64,000 nt of DNA from Chloroflexota bacterium (GCA_018829775.1 JAHJTL010000008.1:13967-77966); one strand, 5' to 3'; positions 2,495-53,518 are shown, counted from the stretch's first letter. Program-made: numbers and translations. Notes: generated by a model not told the origin, from the sequence alone.

Positions 2495-2506
2495 AGGCAG
2501 AAAGGT

Positions 2507-6714: not shown

Positions 6715-7329
6715 CTATGGCTTCCACTTACCGAGACCGGGACCAGATGGTGACAGGTATGCAATGCCCTGAGATCCTTCATATGGGTCATTGTATACTT
6801 CCTGGATAACAGCGAATTCTCCCCAGATATCCGGCCCAATCTCGGTGTCATCGGCGGTGTACCATGTTCCAGTGTTTGCTAGGCCAATCCTATGGGCATC
6901 CGCTGGTACGGCAACTATCTTGACGAAATAGTTCCACTGGCTACCATCTTCATTCTCGTCCCACTGGTGATTTGTCAGCCAGGCACCAGAACCGATGTAG
7001 CTAGGGAAGCCATAGTGTCTGTCCAGTTTACCATCACCGTCACAGTCCTTATTGCTCAGCCAGGCATCATTCCACTTCATCTGGAGCCAGGTATCGCTCT
7101 CGGTTACCGGAGTGGTCGGTCTGCCAGAGTTTTCATACCAGCCATTGAACATATGAGCTTGATAGTTGTATCCCCACTGGTCATAGCCCAATACTAATGG
7201 GTTTCCTAGTGAGTCAACGAGGCCTCCATCCTTTATTGTGGTACATTTTTCGGGTTGCCCTGCCATTACTGGCGCTGTCATTGCCAGCAGCAGTACCACT
7301 GCCACCACTATTGCTATTAACTTCTTCAC
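6715..7329 (-). CDS. secreted hypothetical protein (signal peptide, Trp/Asn/Asp-rich, DCDGDGKLD Ca-binding-like loop)
   Basis: GTG start after AAAGGAG SD. MKKLIAIVVAVVLLLAMTAPVMAG signal peptide. No family recognised. Confidence 0.75.
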   Translation of the reverse strand: MKKLIAIVVAVVLLLAMTAPVMAGQPEKCTTIKDGGLVDSLGNPLVLGYDQWGYNYQAHMFNGWYENSGRPTTPVTESDTWLQMKWNDAWLSNKDCDGDGKLDRHYGFPSYIGSGAWLTNHQWDENEDGSQWNYFVKIVAVPADAHRIGLANTGTWYTADDTEIGPDIWGEFAVIQEVYNDPYEGSQGIAYLSPSGPGLGKWKP

Positions 7330-7418: not shown

Positions 7419-7451
7419 AAAAACATAAAACCGACCTCATAGGGTCGGTTT
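7419..7451 (-). terminator. intrinsic terminator inside the 5' leader of the 6715-7329 gene
   Basis: The minus strand reads AAACCGACC-CUAUGA-GGUCGGUUU followed by UAUGUUUUU. Confidence 0.7.
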
Positions 7452-7590
7452 CACTATTGGCTCCCCACCACCCAAGTGCCCAATTACGGGCGGCGGTTCA
7501 TTGCCTCCCTGGTTATCTCTGGCTGCCGGGTTAGGATATCAACTCATTTCTTGCCTCTATGGTTTAGTCCTTGAAATCCTTCACCCTAGG
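7420..7590 (-). ncRNA. candidate cis-regulatory leader RNA or stand-alone sRNA (~170 nt, unclassified)
   Basis: Bounded by a consensus promoter (7597-7625) and an intrinsic terminator (7419-7451). Contains a nested helix CCGCC[GCCC-GUAAUU-GGGC]ACUUGGGUGG. No ORF of 60 aa or more on this strand. Confidence 0.4.
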
Positions 7591-25921: not shown

Positions 25922-26131
25922 GTGGAATCTCTCAAAGTTTATCACAGTGGCAAATTGAACGGCAAACGATGATGCCATCGCAAGAACATTAGTTGTGGTA
26001 GGCTGAACTTGTCGACTGTTTACCTATGTGGTAACATAATTGTGTCGGATAAAAACAGGGGCTGCGATTGTGCGTGCACCCCTGACTATTTAAATAATGT
26101 CACCGTATAAGTTCATTTTAATCATATAAAC

Positions 26132-26812
26132 GTGGGTAACAATATAAACCTGACTATAAATGGCAAAGCGGTAAGTGGCCGTCCCGGTATGACCATCCTG
26201 GAGGCGGCCAGGGAAAACGACATCGATATTCCGACCCTCTGTTACATCCCGGACCTGCAGCCCATCGGTGCCTGCCGGCTTTGCGTCGTTGAGGTGGAAG
26301 GCTCCCGGACGCTGGTCGGTTCCTGCCATACTCCGATTGTGGAGGGTATGGCGATACAGACCCACTCGCCAAAAGTAATCGCCACGCGAAAAGTCTTGGT
26401 CGAACTGATGCTGGCCAGCCACCCTGATGCCTGCCTCATCTGTGACAAGGCCAATATCTGCGAGCTGCGACGCATTGCCGCCGACCTGGAAGTTGGCCTT
26501 CCCCGCTTCAGGGCCCGGAAGCACTATTATCCGGTTGAGGATGAGCACCCCAGGATGGTCCGTGATATGTCCAAGTGCGTGCAGTGCTGGCGGTGCGTTA
26601 TCGCCTGCAAAAGCAAAGGTGGCGAGCCGCTTTTCAGCACGGCATACCGTGGTTTCGAAAGCAAGGTAATTTACGGCTGCGACCAGCCGCTGGGCGGAGA
26701 AACCTGCGGGGACTGCGATGCCTGTATTGAGCTGTGCCCATCGGGGGCGCTGAGAAAAGTAAGGCAGCCTGGAGAAGAGAGGGCGAATAAGGCGCTTATT
26801 ATCAAAGGCTGA
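26132..26812 (+). CDS. NuoG/HydA N-terminal-like Fe-S protein (2Fe-2S + His-ligated 4Fe-4S + 2x4Fe-4S), no catalytic domain
   Basis: CRLCVVEVEG, HPDACLICDKANIC, CVQCWRCVIAC and CGDCDACIELCP motifs. Only 226 aa. GTG start. Confidence 0.8.
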   Translation: MGNNINLTINGKAVSGRPGMTILEAARENDIDIPTLCYIPDLQPIGACRLCVVEVEGSRTLVGSCHTPIVEGMAIQTHSPKVIATRKVLVELMLASHPDACLICDKANICELRRIAADLEVGLPRFRARKHYYPVEDEHPRMVRDMSKCVQCWRCVIACKSKGGEPLFSTAYRGFESKVIYGCDQPLGGETCGDCDACIELCPSGALRKVRQPGEERANKALIIKG

Positions 26813-26830
26813 GTCATCGGAAATGGTGAT

Positions 26831-27271
26831 ATGGCTGATAAAGGAGTTATAACACTGCCAAAGGACCGGGCTGATCTTGTAGTATGTCTGCAAGAGGCGC
26901 AGCGCCGGTACGGCCATGTGCCGGAAGAGGTTATCGCCGCGCTGGCCGAATCGCTGGCCATACCAGTCCATGAAGTCTATGGGGTTGCCAGCTTCTATTC
27001 GTTTCTTTCCACAAGGCCGCTGGGCAGGAACGTTATCCGTGTTTGCAAGAGCCTGCCCTGCTACCTGAAAAGTGCGGAAGTGATAATGGAGGCAGTGGAA
27101 AAAGAACTGGGCATTGGCCTTGGTGAGACGACAACCGACGGCAGGTTCACGTTCGAGTTGACCAACTGCATCGGCCTCTGCGACCGTGCCCCGGCCATGC
27201 TGATAAATCAAGACCCTCACCTTGACCTGACCCCGGAGAAGATAAAGCAAATTTTAAAATCGTACCGGTAA
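26831..27271 (+). CDS. NuoE-like 2Fe-2S thioredoxin-fold subunit
   Basis: CKSLPC...CIGLCDRAP Cys pattern. 146 aa. Confidence 0.85.
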   Translation: MADKGVITLPKDRADLVVCLQEAQRRYGHVPEEVIAALAESLAIPVHEVYGVASFYSFLSTRPLGRNVIRVCKSLPCYLKSAEVIMEAVEKELGIGLGETTTDGRFTFELTNCIGLCDRAPAMLINQDPHLDLTPEKIKQILKSYR

Positions 27272-27287
27272 CTGAGGAGGCTAATTC

Positions 27288-28484
27288 GTGCCGCAGCAGC
27301 GAGTGGTGCTTAAAAACTGCGATGTAATCGACCCGGAGCGAATTGACAGCTATCTGGAAAGCGGTGGTTTCAAGGCGCTGGCTAAAGCGCGCGATGAAAT
27401 GACTCCGGAGCAGATAACCGGTGAGCTTAAGGCTTCCGGGCTGAGGGGTCGGGGAGGGGCCGGCTTTCCCTGCGGAATCAAGTGGGAAGGCGCCCGCACC
27501 GCGCCAGGCGATATTAAATACGTTATCTGCAACGCCGATGAAGGCGAGGTGGGCACGTTCAAGGACCGTTACATCCTGGAGAAGGACCCCTTCACGCTCA
27601 TTGAAGGGATTCTTATTGCCGGTCACGCCATCGGAGCGAAGCAGGGCTATATCTACCTTCGCGCCGAATATCACTATCTCCTCGACCATTTACAGAATGC
27701 CATCGAACAGGTAAGGCAAAAAGGACTTATAGATGGCTTCAGTCTGGAAATCCGTGAGGGCGCAGGCGCCTACATCTGTGGCGAGGAGTCGGCGCTGATG
27801 GACTCCATCGAGGGGAAAAGGGGCGAGGCGCGCTACCGGCCTCCTTTTCCCACCACCTCCGGCCTCTGGGGAAAGCCGACCATCATCAACAATGTAGAAA
27901 CGCTGATGAATATCCCGCAGATTATCATGAACGGTGCCGACTGGTTCAGCCAGATGGGCACGGAGCGGAGTAAAGGAACAAAAGTCTTTTCCGTCAGCGG
28001 CGACGTGGCGAAACCAGGCGTGTATGAAATGGTGCTGGGCAGCCCGCTGCGTGAGCTGGTCGAGGAGCTGGCCGGGGCGAAGGATGTCAAGATGGTCCAG
28101 ATTGGCGGTGCCACGGGCAGGATTTTACCCGGCGGGGAAATGGATACGCCCCTGGCCTTTGAAGCTGTGCTCGGCGCGGGCGCCGTCACCGTCTATAACC
28201 AGAGCCGCGATGTGATTGACATTGTCTATCGGACCATGGAGTTTTTAACCGAGGAGTCCTGTGGTAAGTGCACTCCCTGCCGCCAGGGAACCGAGGTTAT
28301 GGCCGAGGTGCTGGATAAGTTTCACAAGAATGAAGGCTCGCTGAAAGAGCTGCGGAATCTGGAGGCCCTGTCCAGTGCCATGATGCTCTCTTCGCTGTGC
28401 GGTCTCGGGCAGGCGGCGCCCAATGCGGTGATGGACAGCCTGCAGTACTTTCGCAGTGAGTACGAGAGCCGGGTCGCCAAGTAA
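27288..28484 (+). CDS. NuoF-like NADH-binding FMN/4Fe-4S flavoprotein
   Basis: GLRGRGGAGFPCGIKW, NADEGEVGTFKDR, ESCGKCTPCRQG. GTG after GAGGAGG. Confidence 0.88.
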   Translation: MPQQRVVLKNCDVIDPERIDSYLESGGFKALAKARDEMTPEQITGELKASGLRGRGGAGFPCGIKWEGARTAPGDIKYVICNADEGEVGTFKDRYILEKDPFTLIEGILIAGHAIGAKQGYIYLRAEYHYLLDHLQNAIEQVRQKGLIDGFSLEIREGAGAYICGEESALMDSIEGKRGEARYRPPFPTTSGLWGKPTIINNVETLMNIPQIIMNGADWFSQMGTERSKGTKVFSVSGDVAKPGVYEMVLGSPLRELVEELAGAKDVKMVQIGGATGRILPGGEMDTPLAFEAVLGAGAVTVYNQSRDVIDIVYRTMEFLTEESCGKCTPCRQGTEVMAEVLDKFHKNEGSLKELRNLEALSSAMMLSSLCGLGQAAPNAVMDSLQYFRSEYESRVAK

Positions 28485-28496
28485 GGAGGTGTGGCA

Positions 28497-29174
28497 ATGA
28501 AGACGATTACCAGTCAGAAACCAGCCGAAGAGGTAATGGGTTACCTTGAGAAGTGCCAGAAGGTTTATATTATCGGCTGTGGCACCTGTGCCACCATGTG
28601 CCACACCGGTGGCAAATCTGAAGTTCTGGAGATGAAGGAGAAGCTCGAGGGCAGCGGCAAGGCAGTCACCGGCTGGATGATAATTCCCACCGCCTGTGAT
28701 GAACTGACCAAATATGCCTTGGAAGAGGAGGCGGGGCGGATTAAGGAGGCCGATTGCGTGCTGGCCATGACCTGTGCCGTTGGCGTGCAGACCATAGCCC
28801 TGCATTTGAAAGACAAAAAACCGGTATATCCCGCGTTGAATACCCTGTTCATTGGTATGGAGGACAGTCCGGGACACTTCAGCGAGGTATGCCTGCAGTG
28901 TGGTAGTTGCGTGCTGGGGCGGACGGCAGCCATCTGCCCGCTGGTCCGGTGCTCCAAGAGCCTGCTGAACGGGCCCTGCGGCGGCTCGGCGGGGGGCAAG
29001 TGCGAGGTATCGGAAGACATCCCCTGCGCCTGGCAGCTCATCTATGACCGCCTTTCCGAAATGGGACGGCTTGACGAAATGGAGGAAATCGAGCCCGTTA
29101 AAGACTGGAGCGTGAGTGTTACCGGTGGGCCACGGAAGATAGATGTGGATGCGGAGTGTACCACTACCTCATAG
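28497..29174 (+). CDS. metV: methylene-THF reductase-associated Cys-rich subunit (MetV / MTHFR C-terminal-domain protein)
   Basis: Cys clusters CGTCATMC, CLQCGSCV, CPLVRC, CGG..GGKCE. ATG lies 6 nt after AAGGAGG. Confidence 0.75.
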   Translation: MKTITSQKPAEEVMGYLEKCQKVYIIGCGTCATMCHTGGKSEVLEMKEKLEGSGKAVTGWMIIPTACDELTKYALEEEAGRIKEADCVLAMTCAVGVQTIALHLKDKKPVYPALNTLFIGMEDSPGHFSEVCLQCGSCVLGRTAAICPLVRCSKSLLNGPCGGSAGGKCEVSEDIPCAWQLIYDRLSEMGRLDEMEEIEPVKDWSVSVTGGPRKIDVDAECTTTS

Positions 29175-29183
29175 GAGGCGAAG

Positions 29184-30101
29184 ATGAAAGCCGGAACGAA
29201 TCTGGAACGAATATTGACGAGCGGTAAATTTGCCGTGACGGCAGAAGCTGGACCGCCTAAAGGCACCAGCGCCGAGGTTATACGAAAGAAAGGTGAACTG
29301 CTCCGCAACTGCTGCGATGCGGTGAACGTTACCGATAACCAGACGGCCATTGTGCGCATGTCAAGCGTCGCCGGCTGCCTGCTCCTGAAACAGCAGGGCA
29401 TTGAGCCGGTGATGCAGATGGTCGTTCGCGACCGTAACCGGCTGGCACTGCAGGCCGATGTGCTCGGCGCGGTCGCCCTCGGTATCAATAACATCCTCTG
29501 TCTTTCCGGCGACCATCAGAAGTTCGGTAACCATCCGACGGCCAAGGGTGTCTTTGATATCGACTCAATTCAGCTCATCCAGACTCTGAAAATAATGCGC
29601 GACGAGCATAAATTCATTTCCGGAGAGGATGTATCCGGGGAAGTGCCCGTGTTCATCGGGGCTGCGGCCAATCCTTTTGCCGACCCGTTTGAATACCGGG
29701 TGAGCCGGCTGGCGAAGAAGGTGAAAGCCGGCGCCGATTTCATTCAGACACAGGCCGTCTATGATGTGCCCAAGTTCGCCAGGTGGATGGAAATGCTGAC
29801 GGAACGGGGCCTGGACAAACAGGTGCACATCATGGCCGGTGTCATTCCCATCCGGTCAGCCGGTATGGCCCGCTACATGCGCGACTACGTTCCCGGGGTA
29901 AACGTTCCCGATGAAATCGTGACCCGGATGGAGAAGTCGGAAGCTCCCAAAGAAGAGGGTGTGAGGATAACCCTGGAAATCATCGAGCGGCTGAAGGATA
30001 TGCCCGGCGTACACGGCATTCACATCATGGCGGTGGGCTGGGAGGATATAGTCCCTGAGGTCGTGGAGAAGTCAGGCCTGATGCCGAGGCCGGTGGTTTA
30101 A
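29184..30101 (+). CDS. metF: methylenetetrahydrofolate reductase
   Basis: FAVTAEAGPPKGTS...NVTDNQTAIVRMSS is typical of anaerobe-type MetF. AGGAGG SD. Confidence 0.85.
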   Translation: MKAGTNLERILTSGKFAVTAEAGPPKGTSAEVIRKKGELLRNCCDAVNVTDNQTAIVRMSSVAGCLLLKQQGIEPVMQMVVRDRNRLALQADVLGAVALGINNILCLSGDHQKFGNHPTAKGVFDIDSIQLIQTLKIMRDEHKFISGEDVSGEVPVFIGAAANPFADPFEYRVSRLAKKVKAGADFIQTQAVYDVPKFARWMEMLTERGLDKQVHIMAGVIPIRSAGMARYMRDYVPGVNVPDEIVTRMEKSEAPKEEGVRITLEIIERLKDMPGVHGIHIMAVGWEDIVPEVVEKSGLMPRPVV

Positions 30102-30217: not shown

Positions 30218-31258
30218 ATGAAAACGAGCGATTTCGACTACGTGCTCCCTCAAGAACTCATCGCGCAGACGCCGGTTGAACCCAGAGATAACTCCCGCCT
30301 GATGGTGGTGAACCGCGCTGACGACTCGATAGAACATCGCCGCTTTTATGACATCGTTGATTACCTCCGTGCCGGCGACGTTCTCGTTTTCAATGAAAGC
30401 CTTGTAATACCGGCCCGGCTCTACGGTCGTAAAGTGGATAGCGGTGGACGCGTGGAAATATTGCTGCTGCGTCGGCTGGAGGAAGGCATCTGGGAAGCGC
30501 TGGTCCGGAGAGGTAAACGACTTCGCATCGGCAGCTGGCTATCGATAGGGGATGAAAAGGAGGAGAACGCTTCTCCAACTATAATGGCGGAGGTGGTTGA
30601 CCAGGATGAGGGAGGTATAAAGGTTATCAGGTTCTCCGATGAAACGGTGCTGTCCGAACTGGGTAAAGTACCACTGCCGCCGTATATCAATACCCCACTC
30701 TCCCACCCCGAGCGCTATCAGACGGTGTATGCCCGGGTGGCGGGCAGTGTGGCCGCACCCACCGCCGGCCTGCACTTTACGCCGGAGTTGCTCGACAGGC
30801 TGGAGAAGAAAGGAGTGCGACTTCTCTTTATCTGTCTGCACATCGGTCTGGATACCTTCAGCCCGGTAAGGGAAGAAGACCCAGGGAAACATCATATCCA
30901 CCGCGAGTACGGTATAGTCAGTAAGGAAGTGGCAGGCGAACTATCCGAGGCGAAGCGGCAGGGAAGAAGGGTTATCTGCGTTGGCACTACTACGGTTCGG
31001 ATTCTGGAGCAGGTGGCACAGCTTTATCAACCGGAGCAAATTCAGCCGTTTGCCGACTGGGTCAGCCTGTACATCCTGCCCGGCCACCGGTTCCGCATGG
31101 TCGATGCGCTGCTCACCAATTATCACCTGCCCCGTTCCACACTTTTGATGCTGGTGACCGCCTTTGCCGGTAAAAAACTTATCGATAACGCCTATCGGGA
31201 AGCAATCAATGCAGGAAATCGATTCTACAGCTTTGGCGACGCAATGCTTATCTTGTAA
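30218..31258 (+). CDS. queA: S-adenosylmethionine:tRNA ribosyltransferase-isomerase
   Basis: DFDYVLPQELIAQTPVEPRDNSRLMVV N-terminus. 346 aa. Confidence 0.92.
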   Translation: MKTSDFDYVLPQELIAQTPVEPRDNSRLMVVNRADDSIEHRRFYDIVDYLRAGDVLVFNESLVIPARLYGRKVDSGGRVEILLLRRLEEGIWEALVRRGKRLRIGSWLSIGDEKEENASPTIMAEVVDQDEGGIKVIRFSDETVLSELGKVPLPPYINTPLSHPERYQTVYARVAGSVAAPTAGLHFTPELLDRLEKKGVRLLFICLHIGLDTFSPVREEDPGKHHIHREYGIVSKEVAGELSEAKRQGRRVICVGTTTVRILEQVAQLYQPEQIQPFADWVSLYILPGHRFRMVDALLTNYHLPRSTLLMLVTAFAGKKLIDNAYREAINAGNRFYSFGDAMLIL

Positions 31259-32558: not shown

Positions 32559-33677
32559 TTAGTATTGAGTGCGGAAACCATAGTACCAGACGATAATAAC
32601 GGCAACAGTGACGGTTGCCACCAGGGAGATGATAATTGCCACCCAGGGCGTCGGTGTGGGAACCGGGGCGGGTACAGCTGGTGGTACCGGAGCGGTGGGC
32701 GCCGGGTATTCCACTGCCGGAGCCGTTATCGAGGGTACTGTTGACGTTATCACTACAGGCTTGACTGCTACCGGATTGACGGTAAATGTTCCGGAGAGTC
32801 CATTGATATCTACCTTGTAGCTGCCCGGCTTACCCTGAATGGTGATAAAGGACACAGTCTCGGATTCATGGCCAGCCAGCTTGATGATCTTGCTGGAAAC
32901 AGCCACGCCATTTATCTTGAGCGTTACCTTGGTATTGCCGGAAATATCGCCTGTATTGGCGACAACCGCACTGATGGTCGATTGTTCAGCTACTTCGATT
33001 GCAGTCGGTGAGATGGTCAGGCCGCTGATGGTAAATTCCGACGGTGCCGTATGGGCCATGACACTGTAGTAGGTGAAGTGGCTTATCTCGGCCGTGATGG
33101 TATTGGTCACTGGGTCAATTGTTATATTTTCGGCATCAAGCATCACCCACTGCTGTGTATCCTGGTCATAGTAACCCAATGTGAGGCTTTCCGGGCCCAG
33201 TCCGCTTGGTATCCAGTCGGGGTTATAGACGAAAGTGACCACGATATATGGGTCAAAGATGGCCCCATCCGGTTCAAGGTCATAGTTTAAACCGATGAAG
33301 CTCATATCTGGCGGTGGTGCCTGAGGGTGAACTCTAGTTATGCGTACTTCGGCCAGCGGGTCACCGGCCCTGGTCTGACCGACGGTACCTTTGGGAATCG
33401 TGAGAGTGAGATTCCCATCATCCGATTCGAAAGTGGTTTCCTTGGTAAATACTCCTCCTGAAGTAGTTACCCCACCAGTACCTCCTCCGGTGGTCGGCGG
33501 TGGCGGTTCGCCATACCCGTAACCCTGACCGTAGGCCACCTGAAGCTGACTTGGTTTTGGCAGCAGTAGCAGAGTGGCAAAGATGGCAAGAATTACGGCC
33601 AGCTTAGCCCATTTTCTGATATCAGCCTTTTTCATTTCTACCACATCCCCATTATTGTTTTCTCGCTTTATCGACAT
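32559..33677 (-). CDS. cell-surface protein with one CARDB-like domain and a C-terminal TM anchor
   Basis: N-terminal signal/TM, CARDB-like ISPTAIEVAEQSTISAVVANTGD, Pro/Ala/Val linker, TM tail. The start may be the internal ATG at 33635. Confidence 0.7.
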   Translation of the reverse strand: MSIKRENNNGDVVEMKKADIRKWAKLAVILAIFATLLLLPKPSQLQVAYGQGYGYGEPPPPTTGGGTGGVTTSGGVFTKETTFESDDGNLTLTIPKGTVGQTRAGDPLAEVRITRVHPQAPPPDMSFIGLNYDLEPDGAIFDPYIVVTFVYNPDWIPSGLGPESLTLGYYDQDTQQWVMLDAENITIDPVTNTITAEISHFTYYSVMAHTAPSEFTISGLTISPTAIEVAEQSTISAVVANTGDISGNTKVTLKINGVAVSSKIIKLAGHESETVSFITIQGKPGSYKVDINGLSGTFTVNPVAVKPVVITSTVPSITAPAVEYPAPTAPVPPAVPAPVPTPTPWVAIIISLVATVTVAVIIVWYYGFRTQY

Positions 33678-42665: not shown

Positions 42666-43649
42666 TTAATGCCGGTTGTCCACGCCGACACCCCAGAAAT
42701 CCGGTCTGGTTTTCACCTCTTCAATGAAATCGGCGACCACTTTATCAATGTCGGTGAACTCCGGTTTCCACCCCAACTCTTCACGGGCCCGGGCGTCATC
42801 GATGGTATTCACTCCCCGGGTGCGGTAATACTCCATGACCAGCGGGTCAGGATTATAGGTGATACCGGCATCTGGAATGAATTTCTTGATTGTTTTCTCC
42901 AGCTCACCAGCCGTAGGTGTCGGTGAGATACCGGCCAGGTTATAACAGACCGTTTTTATCTGTTCTTCCGGTGCATCGTAGAGCATCATCGTTGCCCGGA
43001 CAGCATCTTTGTAATAGAGAACAGGTACGGCGACATCCTCGGCGGCGAAGCATTCGAACGGTTCATCCAGCGCAGCATTCTCGACCATCCAGAGCATGAA
43101 CACCGGTAGGGCGCGTATCTTAACGCCGGGACGCATCACCATGCAGTAACGGACAGCGCGGAAGTCCAGTCCGAATTTGCGACGATAAAACCTGCCCAGG
43201 AGCTCGATGTATAATTTTCCGGCGCCGTACATGGTAATCGGTCGCTGCAGCGTCTCATCATCAATCACGGCACCGGTGCCGAGTCCATAGGTCGCGTCCG
43301 TGCTGGCGAAAACAAATCGCCTGACGCCGAACAGTCTGGCTGCTTCCAGCACGTGCATCGAGCCCATGATGTTTACCTGGAACGCACTCCATGGATTTAG
43401 GTCGGACGGTATGCTCAGCATCGAGCCGTGGTGAAAAATGTCCTCAACGTTGTTATCTTTTACGGCGTTTAAAACTTCCGGCCATACCTTGATGTCGCCC
43501 TGGACTACCTTCACCCTGTCTTTGATATCGGCTAGGCGCTGCACCTGCGGGGCGATGTCAAAAAGAACAACGTCCTTGCCTCTGGCAATCAGTTCATGAG
43601 CCAGACCGACGCCGATTCCGCCGGTGCCGCCGGTAATGAGTACGGACAT
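42666..43649 (-). CDS. NAD-dependent epimerase/dehydratase family protein
   Basis: VLITGGTGGIGVGL N-terminus, YGAGK catalytic motif. Confidence 0.82.
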   Translation of the reverse strand: MSVLITGGTGGIGVGLAHELIARGKDVVLFDIAPQVQRLADIKDRVKVVQGDIKVWPEVLNAVKDNNVEDIFHHGSMLSIPSDLNPWSAFQVNIMGSMHVLEAARLFGVRRFVFASTDATYGLGTGAVIDDETLQRPITMYGAGKLYIELLGRFYRRKFGLDFRAVRYCMVMRPGVKIRALPVFMLWMVENAALDEPFECFAAEDVAVPVLYYKDAVRATMMLYDAPEEQIKTVCYNLAGISPTPTAGELEKTIKKFIPDAGITYNPDPLVMEYYRTRGVNTIDDARAREELGWKPEFTDIDKVVADFIEEVKTRPDFWGVGVDNRH

Positions 43650-43695
43650 CCGTTTTCCTCCTCTGACTGCGGCGGTGAGATTGAAACACGTGGTG

Positions 43696-44598
43696 CTAGG
43701 TTTTTTCTCCAGCCAGTTGCTGAATGATTTTGGCTACCACGGACCAGTCCTTGTTACCAAAGCCCGCGGCTCGGGCTGCCTCAACCAGCTGACGGGTAAG
43801 GCTGCCGGCCAGCAGCGGAATTTTAGTTGCCTCGGCGGCGGATAGGATAAGGCCGAGGTCTTTGGCCATCAGGTCGGCGGTGAAGCCGGGGGCAAAGTCG
43901 TTGTTGGCCGGGCTCTGGGGGATAACATTGGGGTAGGGCACCCTCGTCTGCAGTACCCAGCTGTTTCCGGAACTGGCGCTCATCACCTCATAGAGGACCC
44001 TGGGGTCGGCGCCAAGCTTGACGCCAAACAGAAAACCCTCAAAGACACCGATGCCGGCGATGGCCGCTGCCAGGTTGTTGGCCAGCTTGACCACCTCACC
44101 CATGCCAACCTCGCCAACGTGAATGATTTTCTCCCCCATGACCTCCAGTACTGGTTTACACTGGTCAAAGATTTCTTTTTTCCCACCCACCATTATGGAA
44201 AGGGTGCCGTCGGCGGCTTTGGGGGGAGCACCGCTCACCGGTGCATCCATCATATCGATTCCCTTTTCCGCAGCCGCGGCCACTACCTTGCGGGTAACAA
44301 TCGGGTCGATGGTGCTCATATCTATAATGATGTTGCCCTTTTTCAGCCCGGCGAGGACGCCGTCAGGGCCAAACATTATCTGTTCCACGTGTGGTGATGA
44401 GGTCACCATGGTGATAACTATCTCTGAATTCTCGGCCACCTCGCGCGGGGAACCGGCCGCTTTGGCCCCGGCCTGCACCAGTTCCTGAACTGGCTCGGGC
44501 CTGATGTCATGGACAGTCAGCGGATAACCTGCCCTGGCCAGGTTCAAAGCCATCCCTTTGCCCATATTGCCCAAACCGATAAAACCGAGCTTTTTCAT
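43696..44598 (-). CDS. beta-hydroxyacid dehydrogenase (3-hydroxyisobutyrate/tartronate-semialdehyde reductase family)
   Basis: LGFIGLGNMGKGMALNL. 300 aa. Confidence 0.85.
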   Translation of the reverse strand: MKKLGFIGLGNMGKGMALNLARAGYPLTVHDIRPEPVQELVQAGAKAAGSPREVAENSEIVITMVTSSPHVEQIMFGPDGVLAGLKKGNIIIDMSTIDPIVTRKVVAAAAEKGIDMMDAPVSGAPPKAADGTLSIMVGGKKEIFDQCKPVLEVMGEKIIHVGEVGMGEVVKLANNLAAAIAGIGVFEGFLFGVKLGADPRVLYEVMSASSGNSWVLQTRVPYPNVIPQSPANNDFAPGFTADLMAKDLGLILSAAEATKIPLLAGSLTRQLVEAARAAGFGNKDWSVVAKIIQQLAGEKT

Positions 44599-44637
44599 CG
44601 CGCCTCCTTTACCAATTGGAATGGACGGGACTTCAGC

Positions 44638-45603
44638 CTACTTCTTTTTCACCGATTCTCTGACCGCCTGGACGATATGCCGGGCGGTTAATTCGTATTC
44701 CTCTTTCAGTTCTGGCACGGTGCCTGATTGGCCGAACCGGTCTTTAATGCCGACACGTTTCACGGGGACCGGCGCGTTCTCTGCCGTGACCTCGGCTACC
44801 GCCCCACCGAGGCCACCGAGGATACTACTGTCTTCCACGGTGACGATGGCACCGGTCTCTTTGGCGGCCTTGATAATGGCCGCTTCGTCAATCGGCTTAA
44901 GGGTGTGCATATCCAGCAGGCGTACCTTGATACCTTCTTTTGCCAGGGTATCGGCGGCTTCCAGCACGTCGGAAAGCACCATGCCGGTGGAAATAATGGT
45001 GGCATCACTGCCATCGGTCAGGGTTACCGCCTTCCCCAGTTCAAACGGGAAGTCATCACGGTATACGGTTGGCACGGGCGGAGCGGAAATACGCAGGGCC
45101 ACCGGCCCGGTGTATTCAGCAATTGCCCTGGTCATTTTCTTTGTCGATATGGGGTCGGACGGTGAAACGAGCACCAGGTTGGGGATGACGCGCATGGCGG
45201 CGATTTCCTCGATAATCTGGTGCGAACCGCCCATAAAAGACCACAGCATGCCGGAGTTGCAGAGGACGATTTTGACATTCAACTTGTCAAAGGCCACGTT
45301 TTGTCGTATCTGGTTATACGCCCGGCCAACGGCAAAGATGCTGTGGCAGTGGGTGAACGGCAGGTAGCCGCCACCCGCCAGGCCGGCGGCGGTGGTAATA
45401 AGATTTGCCTCGGCAATGCCGACGTCATAAATGCGGTCGGGATGTTCTTTCTGGAACAGCTCACCGGCGGCGCCGCGGGGGAAGTCGCCGTACAGCAGCA
45501 CTATCTTACCGTTTTTCTTCGATAGTTCTATCATTTCCTCATTGTAGGCCTGGTACATTGCTTTCATTTCCCCCAATGGTTCCAGCACATAATTCTGTTT
45601 CAT
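44638..45603 (-). CDS. transketolase, C-terminal (pyrimidine-binding) subunit
   Basis: 321 aa with the DVGIAEANL motif. Follows the N-terminal subunit. Confidence 0.88.
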   Translation of the reverse strand: MKQNYVLEPLGEMKAMYQAYNEEMIELSKKNGKIVLLYGDFPRGAAGELFQKEHPDRIYDVGIAEANLITTAAGLAGGGYLPFTHCHSIFAVGRAYNQIRQNVAFDKLNVKIVLCNSGMLWSFMGGSHQIIEEIAAMRVIPNLVLVSPSDPISTKKMTRAIAEYTGPVALRISAPPVPTVYRDDFPFELGKAVTLTDGSDATIISTGMVLSDVLEAADTLAKEGIKVRLLDMHTLKPIDEAAIIKAAKETGAIVTVEDSSILGGLGGAVAEVTAENAPVPVKRVGIKDRFGQSGTVPELKEEYELTARHIVQAVRESVKKK

Positions 45604-45645
45604 CTTTCGCTCCCTAAAATCTTTTTACGGTTGGTGCGAGACTGC

Positions 45646-46491
45646 CTATTTCAGCGCCTCAAGCGCCTCGGCGTACATTTCATCGGACAGTTTGCAGAAG
45701 TGCAGGTTCTTGTGCTCGAAAGAAGGCACTCCCTTGCATTTGGTGGTGTGGGCGATGATAATGTGCGGCTTTCCCTTGACCCTGTCCGCGTTTTCCAGGG
45801 CGGTAAGGATGGCTTCGAAGTCGTGGCCGTTAATCTCGGCCGTATCCCAGGCGAAAGCTTTCCACTTGTCCACCCACGGCATCATGTTCATCCTTTCCTC
45901 AATCGTGCCGCTGGACTGGAATTTATTGTGGTCGAGGATGGCAACCAGGTTATCCACTTTGTAGTGGAGCGCGGCCATGACCGCTTCCCATATCTGTCCT
46001 TCATTGCTCTCTCCATCCCCGATGATGCAGTAAACACGATAGCGGGGGACGGGGCGACCGGACGAATCCTTGGGAGCATCGATGCGGGCCGCCAGTGCTT
46101 CGCCAAGGGCAAAGGACAGTCCCTGGCCCAGCGAGCCGCCGGAATACTCAATCCCGGGCACAATCCGCTCCGTGTGCGCCTGCAGGGTAGCTCCCATATG
46201 GCCGTAGGACTTGTATAGTTCTTTCGAGAAGTAACCCGCCTCGCCGAAAGCGGCATAGACCGTCTCACAGCAGTGGGCCTTGGAAACGATGAGCCGGTCC
46301 CTGTCCTCCCAGTCGGGGTTTTTCGAGTCGTGCTTCATTTGGTGGAACATCAGCGCGGCGATAATATCCGCCTGCGAAAACGAGCCGCCTATCCAGCCGG
46401 AATCGCCGGCTTTAATCATTTCCACGGCGTCTCTACGGATAATCCTGGCTTTTTCTGCCAGCTTCTGAATTAGCTTTTCATCGTGGGCCAT
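45646..46491 (-). CDS. transketolase, N-terminal (TPP-binding) subunit
   Basis: GSLGQGLS and IIGDGESNEGQIWEA TPP motif. Confidence 0.88.
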   Translation of the reverse strand: MAHDEKLIQKLAEKARIIRRDAVEMIKAGDSGWIGGSFSQADIIAALMFHQMKHDSKNPDWEDRDRLIVSKAHCCETVYAAFGEAGYFSKELYKSYGHMGATLQAHTERIVPGIEYSGGSLGQGLSFALGEALAARIDAPKDSSGRPVPRYRVYCIIGDGESNEGQIWEAVMAALHYKVDNLVAILDHNKFQSSGTIEERMNMMPWVDKWKAFAWDTAEINGHDFEAILTALENADRVKGKPHIIIAHTTKCKGVPSFEHKNLHFCKLSDEMYAEALEALK

Positions 46492-46580
46492 AGCTTCTAT
46501 ACCTCCTGTAGCCTGCTAGATATATATTATACGGACGGCACCATCAGCGCAAACCATATTATTTGCCGCGGTTAATTCAC

Positions 46581-46631
46581 CCAAAAAGAAAAGGGAAGGT
46601 CTCCAAAATCATTCGCGGATTCCTTCCCCTT
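46581..46631 (-). terminator. intrinsic terminator after the E1 beta gene
   Basis: GGGGAAGG.../...CCTTCCC stem, then TTTTCTTTTT on the minus strand. Confidence 0.55.
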
Positions 46632-46698
46632 TCATAGCGCTTAATTCAACCACAGTATGATACTATAGATACAATCGGCGCTGCAATCAGGACAGCAA

Positions 46699-47679
46699 TT
46701 ACAGTATCTGGTTGATGGCCTCTATCAGGTTTTCCTCTTTGGGTATCCAGTAATCCTCCAGAACCACCCCGTACGGTACCGGTGTATCCGGCGCGTTAAC
46801 CCGCTTTATCGGGGCATCAAGGTAGTCGAACCCTTCATCGGCCACTATGGCCGCCACATGCTCGGCGAAACTCCCCGTTTTACATTCCTCGGTGAAAACG
46901 ACCAGACGGCCGGTTTTCTCTACCGACTTCAGCACCGTCTCCTTGTCGAAGGGCACGATGGTGCGCGGGTCGATGACTTCCAGGCTGATGCCCTTTTCCT
47001 TCTGCAATTTTTCCGCGGCATTCAGCGCCCGTGTTACCATGGCCGCCGTGGCGACTACCGTAATGTCGCTTCCTTCCCGTTTGATATCCGCCTGTCCGAA
47101 GGGGATAAGATATTCCTCTTCCGGTGCCTCGCTCTTGGGCCCGGCCCACATCAAGAACTTGTGCTCGAAGAACATCACCGGGTTGTCATCCCTGATGGCG
47201 GTCTTGAGCAGTCCTTTGGCATCGTAGGCGTTTGAGGGCAGGACAATCTTCAGCCCCGGGATGCTCATCATCATGCCCTCGATGCTCTGCGAATGCTGGG
47301 CGGCGGAACGTCGGCCGGCGCCCGTGAGAGCGTCCATGGTAAGGGGCATTTTTATCTTGCCCCCGAACATGTACTTCATCTTGGTCATCTGGTTCATGAT
47401 TTCATCCCAGGCCACTCCAAGGAAATCAGCGAATCGCATCCGCGCAATGGGCCTCATCCCGGTGATGGCAGCACCGATTGAGGCACCGAGAATGGCTGCC
47501 TCGGAGAGAGGGGTATCCCGGACCCGGTCTATTCCGTATTTCTTATACAGGCCGCCGATTTCACCCATCAGGCCGCCCATCGGGCCCACGTCTTCCCCGA
47601 TGATGAATACCGCAGGGTCCCTGGCCATTTCCTCGTCGAGGGCTTCACCAATCGCCTGTCGAATATTTATCTCTCTCAT
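46699..47679 (-). CDS. 2-oxoacid/acetoin dehydrogenase E1 component beta subunit
   Basis: 326 aa. Transketolase-like pyrimidine-binding and C-terminal domains (FIIGEDVG, DTPLSEAA). Confidence 0.88.
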   Translation of the reverse strand: MREINIRQAIGEALDEEMARDPAVFIIGEDVGPMGGLMGEIGGLYKKYGIDRVRDTPLSEAAILGASIGAAITGMRPIARMRFADFLGVAWDEIMNQMTKMKYMFGGKIKMPLTMDALTGAGRRSAAQHSQSIEGMMMSIPGLKIVLPSNAYDAKGLLKTAIRDDNPVMFFEHKFLMWAGPKSEAPEEEYLIPFGQADIKREGSDITVVATAAMVTRALNAAEKLQKEKGISLEVIDPRTIVPFDKETVLKSVEKTGRLVVFTEECKTGSFAEHVAAIVADEGFDYLDAPIKRVNAPDTPVPYGVVLEDYWIPKEENLIEAINQIL

Positions 47680-47688
47680 TCCTGTCTC

Positions 47689-48648
47689 CTATGTAAAAAC
47701 GTTATCCAGAGTCTCTTCCAGTTCCGGGAAGGGGCTTTCCAGAGCGAATTTCACCGCCTCATCCATTTCGGCAAGCGCTTCTTTATCAATGGCTTCAGCC
47801 TGTTTTTCCGTCAGCAACTTCATCTCAAGCAGCTTCTTCTGGTAAGAGTTAATCGGGTCTCTTTTTAACCACTCGTCAATCTCCTCTTTGGGGCGGTAGG
47901 TGCCGGAGTCTCCCTCAAAGTGTCCGCGATAACGGTACGTCTTGGCCTCGATAAGGGTCGGTCCCTGTCCATTTCTGGCCCTGGCCACCGCCTCGCCCGC
48001 GGTTTCATAGACCGCTGTAACGTCCATGCCGTCAACCACAACTCCCGGGATTCCGTAGCCGACGGCTCTATCGGCAACGTTGGGTACATTCAGGGAGATG
48101 CTGGTGGGCACGGAAACCGCCCAGAGGTTGTTTTCGCAGATGAAGACGACCGGCAGGTGCCAGACGGAGGCGAGGTTGATTCCTTCGTGGAAGCGTCCGG
48201 TGTTGGAGGCGCCGTCGCCGAAAAAGCAGATGGTCACCTGGTCGGTACCTCTCAGTACGGCGGAAAGCCCGGCGCCGGTGGCAATGGGGATTCCCGAGCC
48301 AACGATACCGGCCGCACCCAGCATACCGATATCCAGGTCGGCGATGTGCATGGAACCTCCCTTGCCCAGACAGTAGCCGGTCTTCTTGGCGAACAGTTCC
48401 GCCATCATCTTATTGGTTTCACCGCCCTTGGCGATGAGGTGCCCGTGTCCGCGGTGGGTGCTCATGATGTAGTCCTCTTTTTTCAGGTGAGCAATTGCCC
48501 CGGTGGCCACCGCCTCCTCACCGATGTAGAGATGGACGCTGCCGGGGATATTTCCGTCGGCGAACTCCCGGGCAACACGTTCCTCGAACCGCCTGATGCG
48601 GACCATGGTTCGAAACATCCAGAGCAGTTTTTCCTTTTCAATAGCCAT
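47689..48648 (-). CDS. 2-oxoacid/acetoin dehydrogenase E1 component alpha subunit (TPP-binding)
   Basis: FFGDGASNTG TPP motif, YRYRGHFEGD. ATG 48648 follows AAGGGAG. Confidence 0.88.
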   Translation of the reverse strand: MAIEKEKLLWMFRTMVRIRRFEERVAREFADGNIPGSVHLYIGEEAVATGAIAHLKKEDYIMSTHRGHGHLIAKGGETNKMMAELFAKKTGYCLGKGGSMHIADLDIGMLGAAGIVGSGIPIATGAGLSAVLRGTDQVTICFFGDGASNTGRFHEGINLASVWHLPVVFICENNLWAVSVPTSISLNVPNVADRAVGYGIPGVVVDGMDVTAVYETAGEAVARARNGQGPTLIEAKTYRYRGHFEGDSGTYRPKEEIDEWLKRDPINSYQKKLLEMKLLTEKQAEAIDKEALAEMDEAVKFALESPFPELEETLDNVFT

Positions 48649-48775
48649 AGCAACTCCCTTCTCCATAACTGGGGTCAATCAGTGAGGTCTGAGAAAAAGT
48701 GACCGGCTTTACACCAGCAGGTTTCAATCAATCCCCAATATTATACAATACCCTCTTCAGAAATGTGAAACCTGG

Positions 48776-49579
48776 TCACCACGACCGGATGGTCTGCGAG
48801 ATACCGCCATCAACCACCAGGGTAGTCCCCGTGATGTACTTTGCCTCGTTGGAGTTAAGGAAAAGGGCAGCATTGGCGGTGTCCCAGCCCTCACCCTGCC
48901 GGCCCATGGGGGACATGGCATCACGGCGGCGCCACATTTCCTCTATATCACCTCCAGCCCAGGCATCTTTGTTGTAGTACTCAGCCTGCGGCGTCTTCAT
49001 CAGCCCGGGGAGGATGACGTTGCAGCGGATGCCTTTATCGGCGTACTCGAGGGCGATATCTCTGGTCAGGGCAATTATTGCTGACTTTGAAGAGGCGTAG
49101 GCGCAGTTGGGCAGGGTGAACCGTATGGCGCCCACCGAGGCGATATTGGTGATGGAACCTCCCCCCTGCTTCAACATGTGGGGGATGACGTATTTTCCGG
49201 TGAGGAACATGCTCTTCACGTTTACCGCCATCACCTTGTCCCAGGTCTCTTCTGCAGTCTCAATGACACCGCCCCACTGCCCGATGCCCACGTTATTGTG
49301 CAGTATGTCAATCCGGCCGAACTTCTGAATACAGGTCTCGACCATCTTCTGACAGTCGCTCGCTTTGGAAACATCGGCCTGGAAGGTGATGCATTCGCCG
49401 CCTTCTTCGTCAATCATTTTCTTGGTTTCCTCGGCAGCTTCGAGGTTATAGTCAACCGCCATGACTTTGGCGCCCTCCCGGGCAAAGACGATGGTTGTCG
49501 CTTTGCCGTTGCCCATGCCGGGAAGCACGGAACCGGCGCCGGTAACAATGGCTACTTTATCTTTCAATCTCTCTCCCAT
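48776..49579 (-). CDS. SDR oxidoreductase, tandem paralog 3
   Basis: Starts MGERLKDKVAIVTGAGS. YASSK catalytic motif. The track ORF to 49762 runs through the paralog 2 tail and is an artefact. Confidence 0.88.
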   Translation of the reverse strand: MGERLKDKVAIVTGAGSVLPGMGNGKATTIVFAREGAKVMAVDYNLEAAEETKKMIDEEGGECITFQADVSKASDCQKMVETCIQKFGRIDILHNNVGIGQWGGVIETAEETWDKVMAVNVKSMFLTGKYVIPHMLKQGGGSITNIASVGAIRFTLPNCAYASSKSAIIALTRDIALEYADKGIRCNVILPGLMKTPQAEYYNKDAWAGGDIEEMWRRRDAMSPMGRQGEGWDTANAALFLNSNEAKYITGTTLVVDGGISQTIRSW

Positions 49580-49598
49580 TGTTAAATCCTCCCTCTCT

Positions 49599-50420
49599 CT
49601 ATTTCTTTTCGGACGGCCACGACCTCTGGGTTGCGGAAAGACCGGCATCAACCAGCAGGGTAGTCCCGGTGATATACTTCGAATCATCGGAGGCGAGAAA
49701 CAGGGCAGCGTAGGCCACATCCCACGGTTCGCCCTGCTTGCCGGTGGGGGACATGGCGTCACGGCGCTGCCACATCAGTTCAACGCTGCCGTCGCCGTAG
49801 GCGTCCGGGTTATAGTACTCGACCATCGGCGTCTTCATCATTCCGGGCAGGATGGCGTTGCAGCGGATGCCCTTGTCCGCATACTGAATGGCCACCTCCC
49901 GGGTGAGGGCAATTACCCCGGCTTTGGAGACGGAATAAGCAAGCGCTGGCGCCGGCTGACACCGGATGGCGCTGAGTGAGGAAATATTGATGATTATGCC
50001 GCTCTTCTGGGTTTCCATGTGGGGCAGGGCATATTTACAGGTGAGGAACATGCTTTTCAGGTTGATGGCCATAGTCTTGTCCCAGATTTCCTCCGGCGTC
50101 TCCACCGGCCCGCCGTATCCGCCCATCCCCACGTTATTGTGCAGGATGTCGACCCGACCGAACTTCTCGATGCAGGTCTCGACCATCTTCTGGCAGTCGC
50201 TTGTCTTGGAAACATCGGCGTAGAACGCGATGCAGGTGCCGCCTTCCCCTTCAATGGTGCGTTTGGTTTCCTCAGCGGCTTCCAGATTATAGTCAACCGC
50301 CATTATTTTGGCACCCTCTTGGGCGAAGACAATGGATGTTGCCTTGCCATTGCCCGTCCCGGCCAGGATTGAACCGGCGCCGGTGACAATGGCTACCCTA
50401 TCTTTGAGGCGTTCTCCCAT
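49599..50420 (-). CDS. SDR oxidoreductase, tandem paralog 2
   Basis: MGERLKDRVAIVTGAGS, YSVSKAG. Confidence 0.88.
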   Translation of the reverse strand: MGERLKDRVAIVTGAGSILAGTGNGKATSIVFAQEGAKIMAVDYNLEAAEETKRTIEGEGGTCIAFYADVSKTSDCQKMVETCIEKFGRVDILHNNVGMGGYGGPVETPEEIWDKTMAINLKSMFLTCKYALPHMETQKSGIIINISSLSAIRCQPAPALAYSVSKAGVIALTREVAIQYADKGIRCNAILPGMMKTPMVEYYNPDAYGDGSVELMWQRRDAMSPTGKQGEPWDVAYAALFLASDDSKYITGTTLLVDAGLSATQRSWPSEKK

Positions 50421-50452
50421 CTTTTTCTCCTTTTATATCGGCATATCAATGT

Positions 50453-51271
50453 CTATTTCGCTTCCGGTGACCAGGTTCTCATTGTCCCGGACAGGCCGCC
50501 GTCCACGAGCAGTGTGGTTCCGGTAATGTATTTCGAATCATCGGAGGCAAGAAACAGCGCGGCGTAGGCGATATCCCAGGGTTCACCCTGCTTGCCGGTG
50601 GGGGACATAGCATCCCGCCGCCGCCACATCTCTTCGATATCGCCGCCCCAGAAATCTGTATAGTAGCGTGCCACCCGCGGTGTCTTCATCAGCCCCGGAA
50701 GGATAGTGTTGCAGCGGATACCCTTGGCAGCATACTGAATGGCCACCTCGCGCGTCAGGGCAATCACGCCCGCTTTGGAGACGGAATAGGCCAGCAAAGA
50801 CGATGGCTCGGCACGTAACGCGACAATCGAAGCGATGTTGATGATGACGCCACTTCCTTGCTTCTCCATATGGGGCAGGGCATATTTGCAGGTGAGGAAC
50901 ATGCTTTTCAGATTCACGCTCATTACACGGTCCCAGGTCTCCTCGCTGATTTCCACCGGACCGCCGTGTGCTCCCAATGCTACATTGTTGTCCAGGATAT
51001 CCAGGCGGCCGAACTTCTCGATGCAGGTCTCGACCATCTTCTGGCAGTCGCTGGCGAGGGACACATCCGCCTTGAAGGTGATGCACTGGCCGCCCTCTTC
51101 ATCAATCATGCGTTTGGTTTCCTCGGCGGCTTCAGGGTTGATGTCAGCCGCCATGACCCTGGCGCCCTCACGGGCGAAGAGAATGGCCGTTGCCTTGCCA
51201 TTTCCCATGCCGGGACCGATGGCACCAGCCCCGGTGATGATGGCTACCTTGTCTTTCAGACGCTCTCCCAT
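50453..51271 (-). CDS. SDR oxidoreductase, tandem paralog 1
   Basis: MGERLKDKVAIITGAGA, YSVSKAG. Confidence 0.88.
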   Translation of the reverse strand: MGERLKDKVAIITGAGAIGPGMGNGKATAILFAREGARVMAADINPEAAEETKRMIDEEGGQCITFKADVSLASDCQKMVETCIEKFGRLDILDNNVALGAHGGPVEISEETWDRVMSVNLKSMFLTCKYALPHMEKQGSGVIINIASIVALRAEPSSLLAYSVSKAGVIALTREVAIQYAAKGIRCNTILPGLMKTPRVARYYTDFWGGDIEEMWRRRDAMSPTGKQGEPWDIAYAALFLASDDSKYITGTTLLVDGGLSGTMRTWSPEAK

Positions 51272-51336
51272 AGCTCACCAACTTTTAACGCCTGCGAAAA
51301 AAGCGACTTACCCCTATGCCTCCTCCGACTTTTCCC

Positions 51337-52368: not shown

Positions 52369-52414
52369 TTCATCTGCTTCCTTTCCATATCAGAATTCGC
52401 TGTCAAAGGGAACA

Positions 52415-52460
52415 CATAAGAAAACCCCTGTAAATTCCTCTTTTGAGTTCGTTACAGGGG
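52415..52460 (-). terminator. intrinsic terminator after the small-paralog pair
   Basis: 9-bp stem CCCCTGTAA/TTACAGGGG, then TTTTCTT on the minus strand. Confidence 0.55.
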
Positions 52461-52620
52461 ATTCCGGTAACTTTTCCATGTATTCTGATATGCTGAATGA
52501 TGATGGTTTCTGATAATCGGTCAGTCAATTCAGGTTCAGCTATACCAGCGAGCATCATTGTCTATTATACCGCATTCCAGGACACACGACCAGCCGCTAA
52601 GTTCCACCACAATACTGCTT

Positions 52621-53031: not shown

Positions 53032-53050
53032 TGTTTACCCCCTCCCCTTT

Positions 53051-53473: not shown

Positions 53474-53518
53474 AAATCCTACCTCCCCGTCTCTGAACTA
53501 AGTATCTGATACTGGTTA

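Follow-up and report, generated by a model that had tools for sequence, protein, structure and literature searches.

The stretch of DNA analysed here, referred to below as the window, comprises 64,000 nucleotides (nt; 64 kb) of a Chloroflexota bacterium (GCA_018829775.1 JAHJTL010000008.1:13967-77966), with positions counted from its first letter. Between positions 26,132 and 30,101, five genes follow one another on the plus strand (Table 1). Their products are, in order, a short HoxU-like iron-sulfur (Fe-S) subunit, a NuoE-like subunit, a NuoF-like subunit (genes 1, 2, and 3, or U, E, and F), MetV (gene 4), and MetF (gene 5). An earlier note on this DNA had placed the five open reading frames (ORFs) with exact coordinates, and had read genes 1–3 as an NADH-dehydrogenase-like module feeding a methylene-tetrahydrofolate (methylene-THF) reductase (MTHFR) formed by MetV and MetF. 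Judged by its gene content, the operon belongs to the X type of MTHFR, which is genomically defined, previously described, and uncharacterised.

The ORFs are separated by gaps of 18, 16, 6, and 9 nt, so that the tight spacing claimed in the earlier note holds, with a range of 6–18 rather than 9–18 nt. Its further claim that each gene has its own Shine-Dalgarno sequence is borne out clearly for genes 3, 4, and 5 only: the sequences preceding genes 3, 4 (at ATG 28497), and 5 are strong, the one preceding gene 2 is weak, and none is present in the sequence inspected upstream of gene 1. The ORF of gene 4 opens at a GTG at 28491; the Shine-Dalgarno sequence AAGGAGGT abuts this GTG and is correctly spaced for the ATG at 28497. 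MetV is therefore probably 225 amino acids (aa) long, and the gap between genes 3 and 4 is probably 12 nt. Proteins identical to these, with the same neighbours, are encoded by the Dehalococcoidia metagenome-assembled genome (MAG) GCA_043824655.1 as well as by an ENA contig of 88 kb.

Fer2_4, NADH-G_4Fe-4S_3, and Fer4_Nqo3 domains were recognised by Pfam in the product of gene 1, while Pfam and NCBIfam scans agreed in finding neither a molybdopterin nor an H-cluster domain there, as had been noted before. The best NCBIfam match was to group A6 [FeFe] hydrogenase (NADH-dependent, non-bifurcating), over the N-terminal 209 residues and at 212 bits, which is under the cut-off. The HoxU model scored 191 bits (cut-off 333) with positions 5–213 of 238 covered, and the NuoG model TIGR01973 scored 146 bits (cut-off 470), the whole C-terminal part of NuoG being absent. 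The nearest solved chain was Acetobacterium woodii HydA1, residues 4–208 (7q4v_A, E 1e-45). One [2Fe-2S], one His-ligated [4Fe-4S], and two ferredoxin-type [4Fe-4S] clusters are predicted. Ligands C37/48/51/65, H97/C101/104/110, and C149/152/155/159 were invariant in 22/22 sequences; in the fourth cluster, C198 and C202 were also invariant, C192 was present in 21/22, and C195 in 20/22. The family of gene 1 contains more than 120 protein clusters at an identity of at least 69%, almost all of 225–229 aa; the exceptions are three gene calls that run longer and a handful of shorter fragments. A length of about 226 aa is thus typical of the family, and the shortness of gene 1 does not result from artefactual truncation.

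Gene 2 matched PF01257 (E 9e-48) and exceeded the cut-off of the NCBIfam NuoE model NF005722 (155 bits against 141), while its score with HoxE was 107 bits (cut-off 224). Its [2Fe-2S] ligands C72, C77, C113, and C117 were invariant in 23/23 sequences. In gene 3, Pfam recognised Complex1_51K, SLBB, and NADH_4Fe-4S domains only. The scores of its product were under the cut-offs of both NuoF TIGR01959 (435 bits, cut-off 559) and the rnfC model (50 bits, cut-off 246). Of the [4Fe-4S] ligands, C325, C328, and C371 were invariant (25/25), and C331 was present in 24/25 sequences. Gene 3 aligned with residues 115–526 of the 597-aa bifurcating HydB from Acetomicrobium mobile (7t2r_B); these limits imply that it lacks the N-terminal 2Fe-2S and C-terminal 2x[4Fe-4S] domains of that protein (114 and 71 residues). 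Overall, the Cys and His cluster motifs named in the earlier note are present and conserved among 22–34 relatives.

Gene 4 matched PF12225 (E 3e-36) and has 13 conserved Cys residues; the MetV motif LLNGPCGG is present and was invariant among the relatives aligned. A search of MetV against solved structures gave no match even at E 0.01. Gene 5 matched PF02219 (E 2e-39) over profile positions 2–287 of 287, and its best NCBIfam match was the MTHFR half of NF006396 (227 bits). The metV gene lies directly 5' of metF, with a 9-nt gap, as in X-type gene clusters. MetVF is predicted to be a methylene-THF reductase containing a flavin, with MetV carrying two [4Fe-4S] clusters.

To place the operon among its relatives, species-representative genomes were scanned with MetV, and the 42 loci obtained were sorted by tblastn using the five window proteins. 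The complete U-E-F-MetV order was present in 20 of them, with a MetV identity of 58–95%, and one more such locus came from a separate look-up. Another 12 loci were cut by contig ends and were consistent with the same order, 2 were uninformative, and 3 were variants. The remaining 5 were distant (50% identity or less) and of other types, either Hdr/MvhD in Anaerolineales or acs-linked in Syntrophomonadaceae. A metagenome scan with a MetV alignment, which recovered close relatives only (at least 68% identity), enlarged the synteny sample within the same taxonomic reach. Among loci with enough upstream sequence, the U-E-F-MetV(-MetF) order was kept in 21/21 genome loci and in 38/38 metagenome loci, two of the latter being duplicates of genome loci. 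The adjacency of U-E-F and MetVF is thus far beyond chance. Flanking genes vary between the loci that keep U-E-F-MetV. Almost all carriers are Dehalococcoidia, with the addition of one MAG binned as Poribacteria (locus L040; L numbers denote individual loci), and the five-gene unit is the commonest Dehalococcoidia context of MetVF among the sampled loci.

In three lineages (NuoF identity 64–65%), the gene order is fhs, fchA, folD, (nifU), U, E, F, metV, metF, PTPS, and in one of them the unit is followed by cooS and acsB. The position of the unit inside fhs-fchA-folD clusters firmly ties the U-E-F-MetVF module to folate one-carbon metabolism. From the anatomy of the genes and the conserved synteny we infer, as the earlier note did, that genes 1–3 encode a three-subunit NADH-dehydrogenase-like module dedicated to MetVF.

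The arrangement was presented in the earlier note as a candidate new architecture; it turns out to have been described, under a type that the note's list of MTHFRs omitted. Yi et al. 2021 (PMC8515935) reported a NuoEFG homolog encoded upstream of metFV in Dethiosulfatarculus sandiegensis and proposed an "X type" MTHFR, corresponding to group III of the MetFV tree and widespread in Desulfobacterales and Chloroflexi. The window operon has the same gene content, with genes for NuoE, NuoF, and NuoG homologs directly 5' of metFV at gaps of 6–18 nt; the likeness to the D. sandiegensis system, known from its genes alone, is drawn from the published description of gene order. No biochemical characterisation of an X-type enzyme was found in open-access papers or bioRxiv, where a report in a subscription journal could be missed, so that a prior characterisation, which the earlier note had counted as fatal to its proposal, did not surface in this literature. 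In a 2026 paper on acetogens, the only MTHFR types referred to are still the numbered ones defined earlier. Several papers that name MetVF together with NuoE or NuoEFG were considered as precedents and set aside (Sewell 2017, Merino 2020, and papers on Carboxydocella, on a haloalkaline acetate-oxidiser, and on ANME comparative genomics, as well as a Thermanaeromonas preprint), being concerned with Hdr-type clusters or with separate complex I modules.

We consider it likely, with a probability of roughly 0.6, that the five gene products form a soluble, non-bifurcating methylene-THF reductase of the X type that depends on NAD(P)H. The gene content, the conservation of ligands and of synteny, and the lack of hallmarks of bifurcation were observed; from these we infer that the proteins form a complex, that NADH is the donor, the route taken by the electrons, and the direction in which catalysis runs. 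In such an enzyme, NADH would give a hydride to the flavin mononucleotide (FMN) of the NuoF-like subunit, and electrons would leave singly through the single [4Fe-4S] cluster of that subunit, traverse the four clusters of the HoxU-like subunit, and pass to the two [4Fe-4S] clusters of MetV and then to the MetF flavin, where methylene-THF would be converted to methyl-THF. The [2Fe-2S] cluster of NuoE is taken to lie off this path, like N1a of complex I. The reaction from NADH to methylene-THF is exergonic by ~23 kJ/mol, by our own arithmetic from −320 mV for NADH and −200 mV for methylene-THF, potentials quoted from the literature including PMC8515935. The match of gene 1 to the N-terminus of a non-bifurcating hydrogenase supports the proposed enzyme.

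A number of points weigh against this proposal. Complex, transcript, and activity are predicted from sequence for every member of the type. NuoE is retained, though a linear chain has no obvious need for it. Purified two-subunit MetVF enzymes use reduced ferredoxin and not NADH (PMC8515935), and the sequence gives no sign of a preference for NADH or NADPH. The core of gene 3 scores higher against solved bifurcating BfuB subunits (440–381 bits) than against Nqo1 (361) or FdsB (328). Yi et al. 2021, the sole paper naming the X type, speculates on electron bifurcation (PMC8515935). Finally, annotation and Pfam scans revealed no other Wood-Ljungdahl gene in the 64-kb window, and the earlier note's expectation that the module would set the energetics of the methyl branch in this organism finds no support there.

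A functional precedent is the RnfC2-MetV-MetF enzyme of A. woodii (3S type; PMC8515935), in which MetVF is likewise combined with an FMN- and Fe-S-containing NADH-input protein of the Complex1_51K fold, and which is NADH-dependent and non-bifurcating. This precedent supports the addition of an NADH-input flavoprotein to MetVF, and the reaction and energetics predicted for the window enzyme equal those of the A. woodii enzyme. RnfC2, however, is one RnfC-type polypeptide with a MetV-like N-terminus, whereas the window encodes separate NuoE, NuoF, and HoxU-like subunits and so falls outside the 3S type. By analogy, the window enzyme would be a functional counterpart of RnfC2-MetVF, with an input module that is different but homologous at the NADH site. 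The HdrABC-MvhD-MetFV of Moorella thermoacetica (6S type), also seen here in Anaerolineales loci L042 and L043, similarly joins MetVF to an NADH-oxidising multi-subunit module; the window has no Hdr or MvhD, its input module is unrelated, and it is not of this type.

Other relatives share parts of the input module. Non-bifurcating NADH-dependent NuoF-type beta subunits (Losey et al. 2020) have in common with gene 3 the diagnostic residues T/S, K, and Y and the lack of GGPSG, and extra clusters are absent in both. The group A6 hydrogenase differs from the window system, which has no H-cluster domain and has MetVF as its catalytic partner. The HoxEFU diaphorase of bidirectional [NiFe]-hydrogenases is likewise soluble and built of three subunits, its U subunit being short (~240 aa) and carrying four clusters, but the window proteins score under the HoxU and HoxE equivalog cut-offs and no hoxYH accompanies them. 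Compared with the N-module of complex I, the window has no full-length NuoG, no NuoF or NuoG at equivalog level, and no linkage to nuoA-N; NuoE alone passes.

Several loci depart from the five-gene layout. At L039 (4347–8614), and also at L134, L135, and L136, the order is FdhA-like, MetV, MetF without nuoE or nuoF; this arrangement recurs on 16 contigs of one Dehalococcoidia population. The FdhA-like protein of L039 (885 aa) combines a molybdopterin domain with 2Fe-2S, His-4Fe-4S, and ferredoxin domains and contains the motif ARLCHAS, and the stop codon of its gene overlaps the metV start by 4 nt; the FdhA-MetV-MetF set may be a formate-driven MTHFR. L137 (5482–12623) encodes FdhA (892 aa), NuoE, and a NuoF of 559 aa that carries an additional 2Fe-2S domain at its N-terminus; MetV follows directly, while metF lies on the opposite strand ~700 nt downstream. 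At L041 (787–7438), a 595-aa Fe-S protein, a HoxU-like protein sharing 63% identity with gene 1, NuoE, and a 1034-aa NuoF-GltD fusion precede metV, so that a Stn/Nfn-Bfu-like unit occupies the position of the simple module. The 595-aa protein has an N-terminal 2Fe-2S and several ferredoxin-type 4Fe-4S domains; its middle part appeared HdrA-like by eye, though no flavoprotein domain was recognised there by Pfam. Variants L039, L041, and L137, all from Dehalococcoidia, suggest that the NuoG-type N-terminal module could be a general adaptor docking onto MetV, with swappable donors (NADH through NuoEF, formate through a full FdhA, or a Stn/Nfn-like unit).

Exceptions to the gene order itself were rare. 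A HoxU-like gene directly precedes metV at L127, L106 lacks NuoE and the N-terminal portion of NuoF, and ~1.5 kb is inserted between nuoF and metV at L098. At L038, a contig binned as Spirochaetaceae ends in a MetV fragment that has unrelated genes upstream; this locus was set aside as a probable chimeric join. Two MetF lineages are paired with one U-E-F-MetV unit: relative to the window, the divergent loci L037, L040, and L129–L133 show identities of 42–44% for MetF, 56–61% for MetV, and 64–70% for NuoF. In ~40 loci (e.g., L022:7760-9214, L024, L031, L080, L112, and L122), which represent a large subclade of Dehalococcoidales, metV and metF are separated by the gene for a membrane histidine kinase (HisKA and HATPase_c, ~484 aa, 60–100% identity across loci) that is orthologous throughout; this gene is absent from the window. 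In marine Chloroflexi, phoBR genes flank a metF (Sewell 2017).

The earlier note, like Yi et al. 2021, had considered the enzyme possibly bifurcating. An electron-bifurcating MTHFR would use 2 NADH, oxidised ferredoxin, and methylene-THF to form 2 NAD+, reduced ferredoxin, and methyl-THF, or would run in reverse as a confurcating enzyme when methyl-THF is oxidised, with the FMN of NuoEF as the bifurcating center. Bifurcation would save the ~23 kJ/mol that is otherwise lost, NuoEF-type modules form the core of Bfu enzymes, and the retained NuoE would fit. Bfu enzymes of the HydABC type have homologous A, B, and C subunits and are the top solved relatives of genes 1 and 3, those of gene 3 all being bifurcating BfuB subunits. 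The Bfu family, however, is defined by BfuB, a NuoF core with a ferredoxin-type 4Fe-4S domain (IPR017896) and clusters B2–B5, and Nqo1, Rhodobacter capsulatus Fdh, and the hydrogenases of R. eutropha and S. wolfei, which lack B2–B5, are non-bifurcating (Schut et al. 2022). Genes 2 and 1 have the features of BfuC (NuoE-like) and BfuA (2Fe-2S and ferredoxin domains), whereas gene 3 has neither the ferredoxin-type domain nor the N-terminal 2Fe-2S of BfuB; lacking clusters B2–B5 and the Bfu-specific residues, it stands outside the family definition. No ferredoxin-docking clusters could be identified.

The diagnostic residues point the same way. According to Losey et al. 2020, the NADH-site motif contains A/E and M in bifurcating subunits, which further carry F close to the FMN and GGPSG within the SLBB region; their non-bifurcating counterparts show T/S, K/S/A, and Y, lack GGPSG, and possess fewer Fe-S domains. 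The diagnostic motifs of gene 3 are NADEGEVGTFKDR (GTFKDR), GAGAYICGE, and QIGGATG; it thus has T and K, Y (GAGAY), and GGATG in place of GGPSG, which is non-bifurcating at all three sites. The same pattern was found in 25/26 locus homologs. The wider NuoF-like family, searched from the divergent member L040, is large (395–435 aa); among 120 further members, GTFKDR was present in 119, GAGAY in 111 (9 were unmatched by the search pattern), and GGPSG in none, and the ferredoxin-type motif CxxCxxCxxxC was likewise found in 0/120. The non-bifurcating residues are therefore conserved in ~145 relatives. The true Bfu/Stn-like NuoF-GltD fusion adjoining metV in the Dehalococcoidia variant L041, which can be cited in favor of bifurcation, served as a control at the same genomic position and showed GAFMDR, GAGAF, and GGPSG together with an N-terminal 2Fe-2S. 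With the Bfu domains absent and non-bifurcating residues at every site, the window enzyme is predicted not to bifurcate, and we regard bifurcation with NuoEF as its center as unlikely. The higher total score of gene 3 against bifurcating BfuB leaves room for a bifurcating ancestry: its family may descend from, or be sister to, bifurcating enzymes, and may have originated by domain loss.

A different, non-Bfu route to bifurcation can be envisaged for the X-type enzyme, in which the NuoF FMN would split electrons, the HoxU-like subunit and MetV would wire one branch to methylene-THF, and the NuoE [2Fe-2S] would deliver directly to ferredoxin without B2–B5. We rate this quite improbable, and find the adaptor role of the NuoG-type N-terminal module more likely.

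The proposed complex might also run backwards, oxidising methyl-THF to methylene-THF with reduction of NAD+, pulled by a low NADH/NAD+ ratio, in an oxidative Wood-Ljungdahl pathway or a methyl-degrading metabolism. Many Desulfobacterales oxidise acetyl-CoA via the reverse pathway, which was counted in favor of this direction. The X type is reported to be common in Desulfobacterales (PMC8515935), and the window organism looks heterotrophic (acyl-CoA dehydrogenase and electron transfer flavoprotein (ETF), a tripartite ATP-independent periplasmic (TRAP) transporter, many dehydrogenases). The reaction would, however, be endergonic by ~23 kJ/mol at standard conditions, and the sequence carries no sign of direction. 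This doubtful possibility is a variant of the NADH-dependent reductase, not a different machine.

Least probable of all is that genes 1–3 merely lie beside metVF, either as an N module detached from an 11-subunit complex I whose genes lie elsewhere, or as a diaphorase serving hydrogenases or formate dehydrogenases in general. Such a reading has been given to marine Chloroflexi in which nuoEFG forms an operon apart from an 11-subunit Nuo (PMC5736913), and gene 2 clears the NuoE cut-off. Against it, gene 1 has no NuoG C-terminal part (146 against 470 bits), gene 3 is under the NuoF cut-off, and the 64-kb window contains no other nuo, hox, or hyd gene. In addition, metV keeps its place next to the module in each of the 59 informative loci, even though their flanks change, and also inside Wood-Ljungdahl clusters, and the overlap of metV by the gene for the L039 FdhA-like protein, which has the same N-terminal module, points to this module as the partner of MetV.

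A weak sigma-70-like promoter candidate (TCGACT-17-CATAAT, 9/12 matches) lies in the 153-nt gap between gene 1 and the divergent surE; the count of such sites in the region is within chance expectation, so that it is a candidate only. No riboswitch or leader RNA 5' of gene 1 was matched in Rfam at E up to 1, and the 157-nt leader of gene 1 folds no better than shuffled sequences (z = −0.45). A scan for intrinsic terminators between metF and queA found none convincing, only a weak hairpin (z = −0.72). The queA gene is a conserved neighbor, found downstream of metF in many close relatives, and is probably not a functional part of the MTHFR unit.

Table 1. Features of the window, with positions counted from its first letter.
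Feature	Position	Strand	Description
Gene 1	26132..26812	+	226-aa HoxU-like / NuoG-HydA-FdhA N-terminal Fe-S subunit
Gene 2	26831..27271	+	146-aa NuoE-like thioredoxin-fold [2Fe-2S] subunit
Gene 3	27288..28484	+	398-aa NuoF-like FMN/NAD(P)H subunit with a single N3-type [4Fe-4S]
Gene 4 (MetV)	28491..29174 (ORF); 28497..29174 (likelier, ATG start)	+	227 aa (ORF); 225 aa (likelier)
Gene 5 (MetF)	29184..30101	+	305-aa TIM-barrel flavoprotein, predicted methylene-THF reduction
queA	30218..31258	+	PF02547; 116 nt past metF
Promoter candidate	26012..26040	+	weak, sigma-70-like
Acyl-CoA dehydrogenase, ETF-beta, ETF-alpha	555-3502	+	in a row; Bcd/Etf-type cluster
204-aa ORF	6715-7329	-	no Pfam match on record
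Cyclic-di-GMP-II riboswitch aptamer	7434-7517	-	67 bits (gathering cut-off 53.5)
Second CARDB protein	32559-33677	-	C-terminal transmembrane helix
Same-strand block	42666-56555	-	probable catabolic island
949-aa protein	59348-62197	-	eight CARDB repeats, DUF11, Big_3_5

Around the operon lie surE, acpS, queA, and genes for a major facilitator superfamily transporter, a methyltransferase, and numerous catabolic dehydrogenases; Pfam scans supplied the annotation of the window's right half. The same-strand block encodes an epimerase, a 3-hydroxyisobutyrate-type dehydrogenase, split transketolase-like genes, E1 alpha and beta, three short-chain dehydrogenases, a zinc alcohol dehydrogenase, and a TRAP transporter (DctPQM), and is probably a catabolic island for some organic acid or sugar. 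The Bcd/Etf-type cluster is found in reverse orientation in L006. The cyclic-di-GMP-II aptamer lies ~105 nt upstream of the 204-aa ORF. Both CARDB proteins are probable cell-surface proteins.

The amount of energy that an organism using the Wood-Ljungdahl pathway can conserve is determined by the electron donor of MTHFR, which is unsettled for most lineages; Dehalococcoidia, in turn, are among the most abundant subsurface bacteria. If the X type is indeed, contrary to published speculation, a plain NADH-dependent enzyme that does not bifurcate, ~23 kJ per mol of methyl groups would not be conserved at this step in its carriers.

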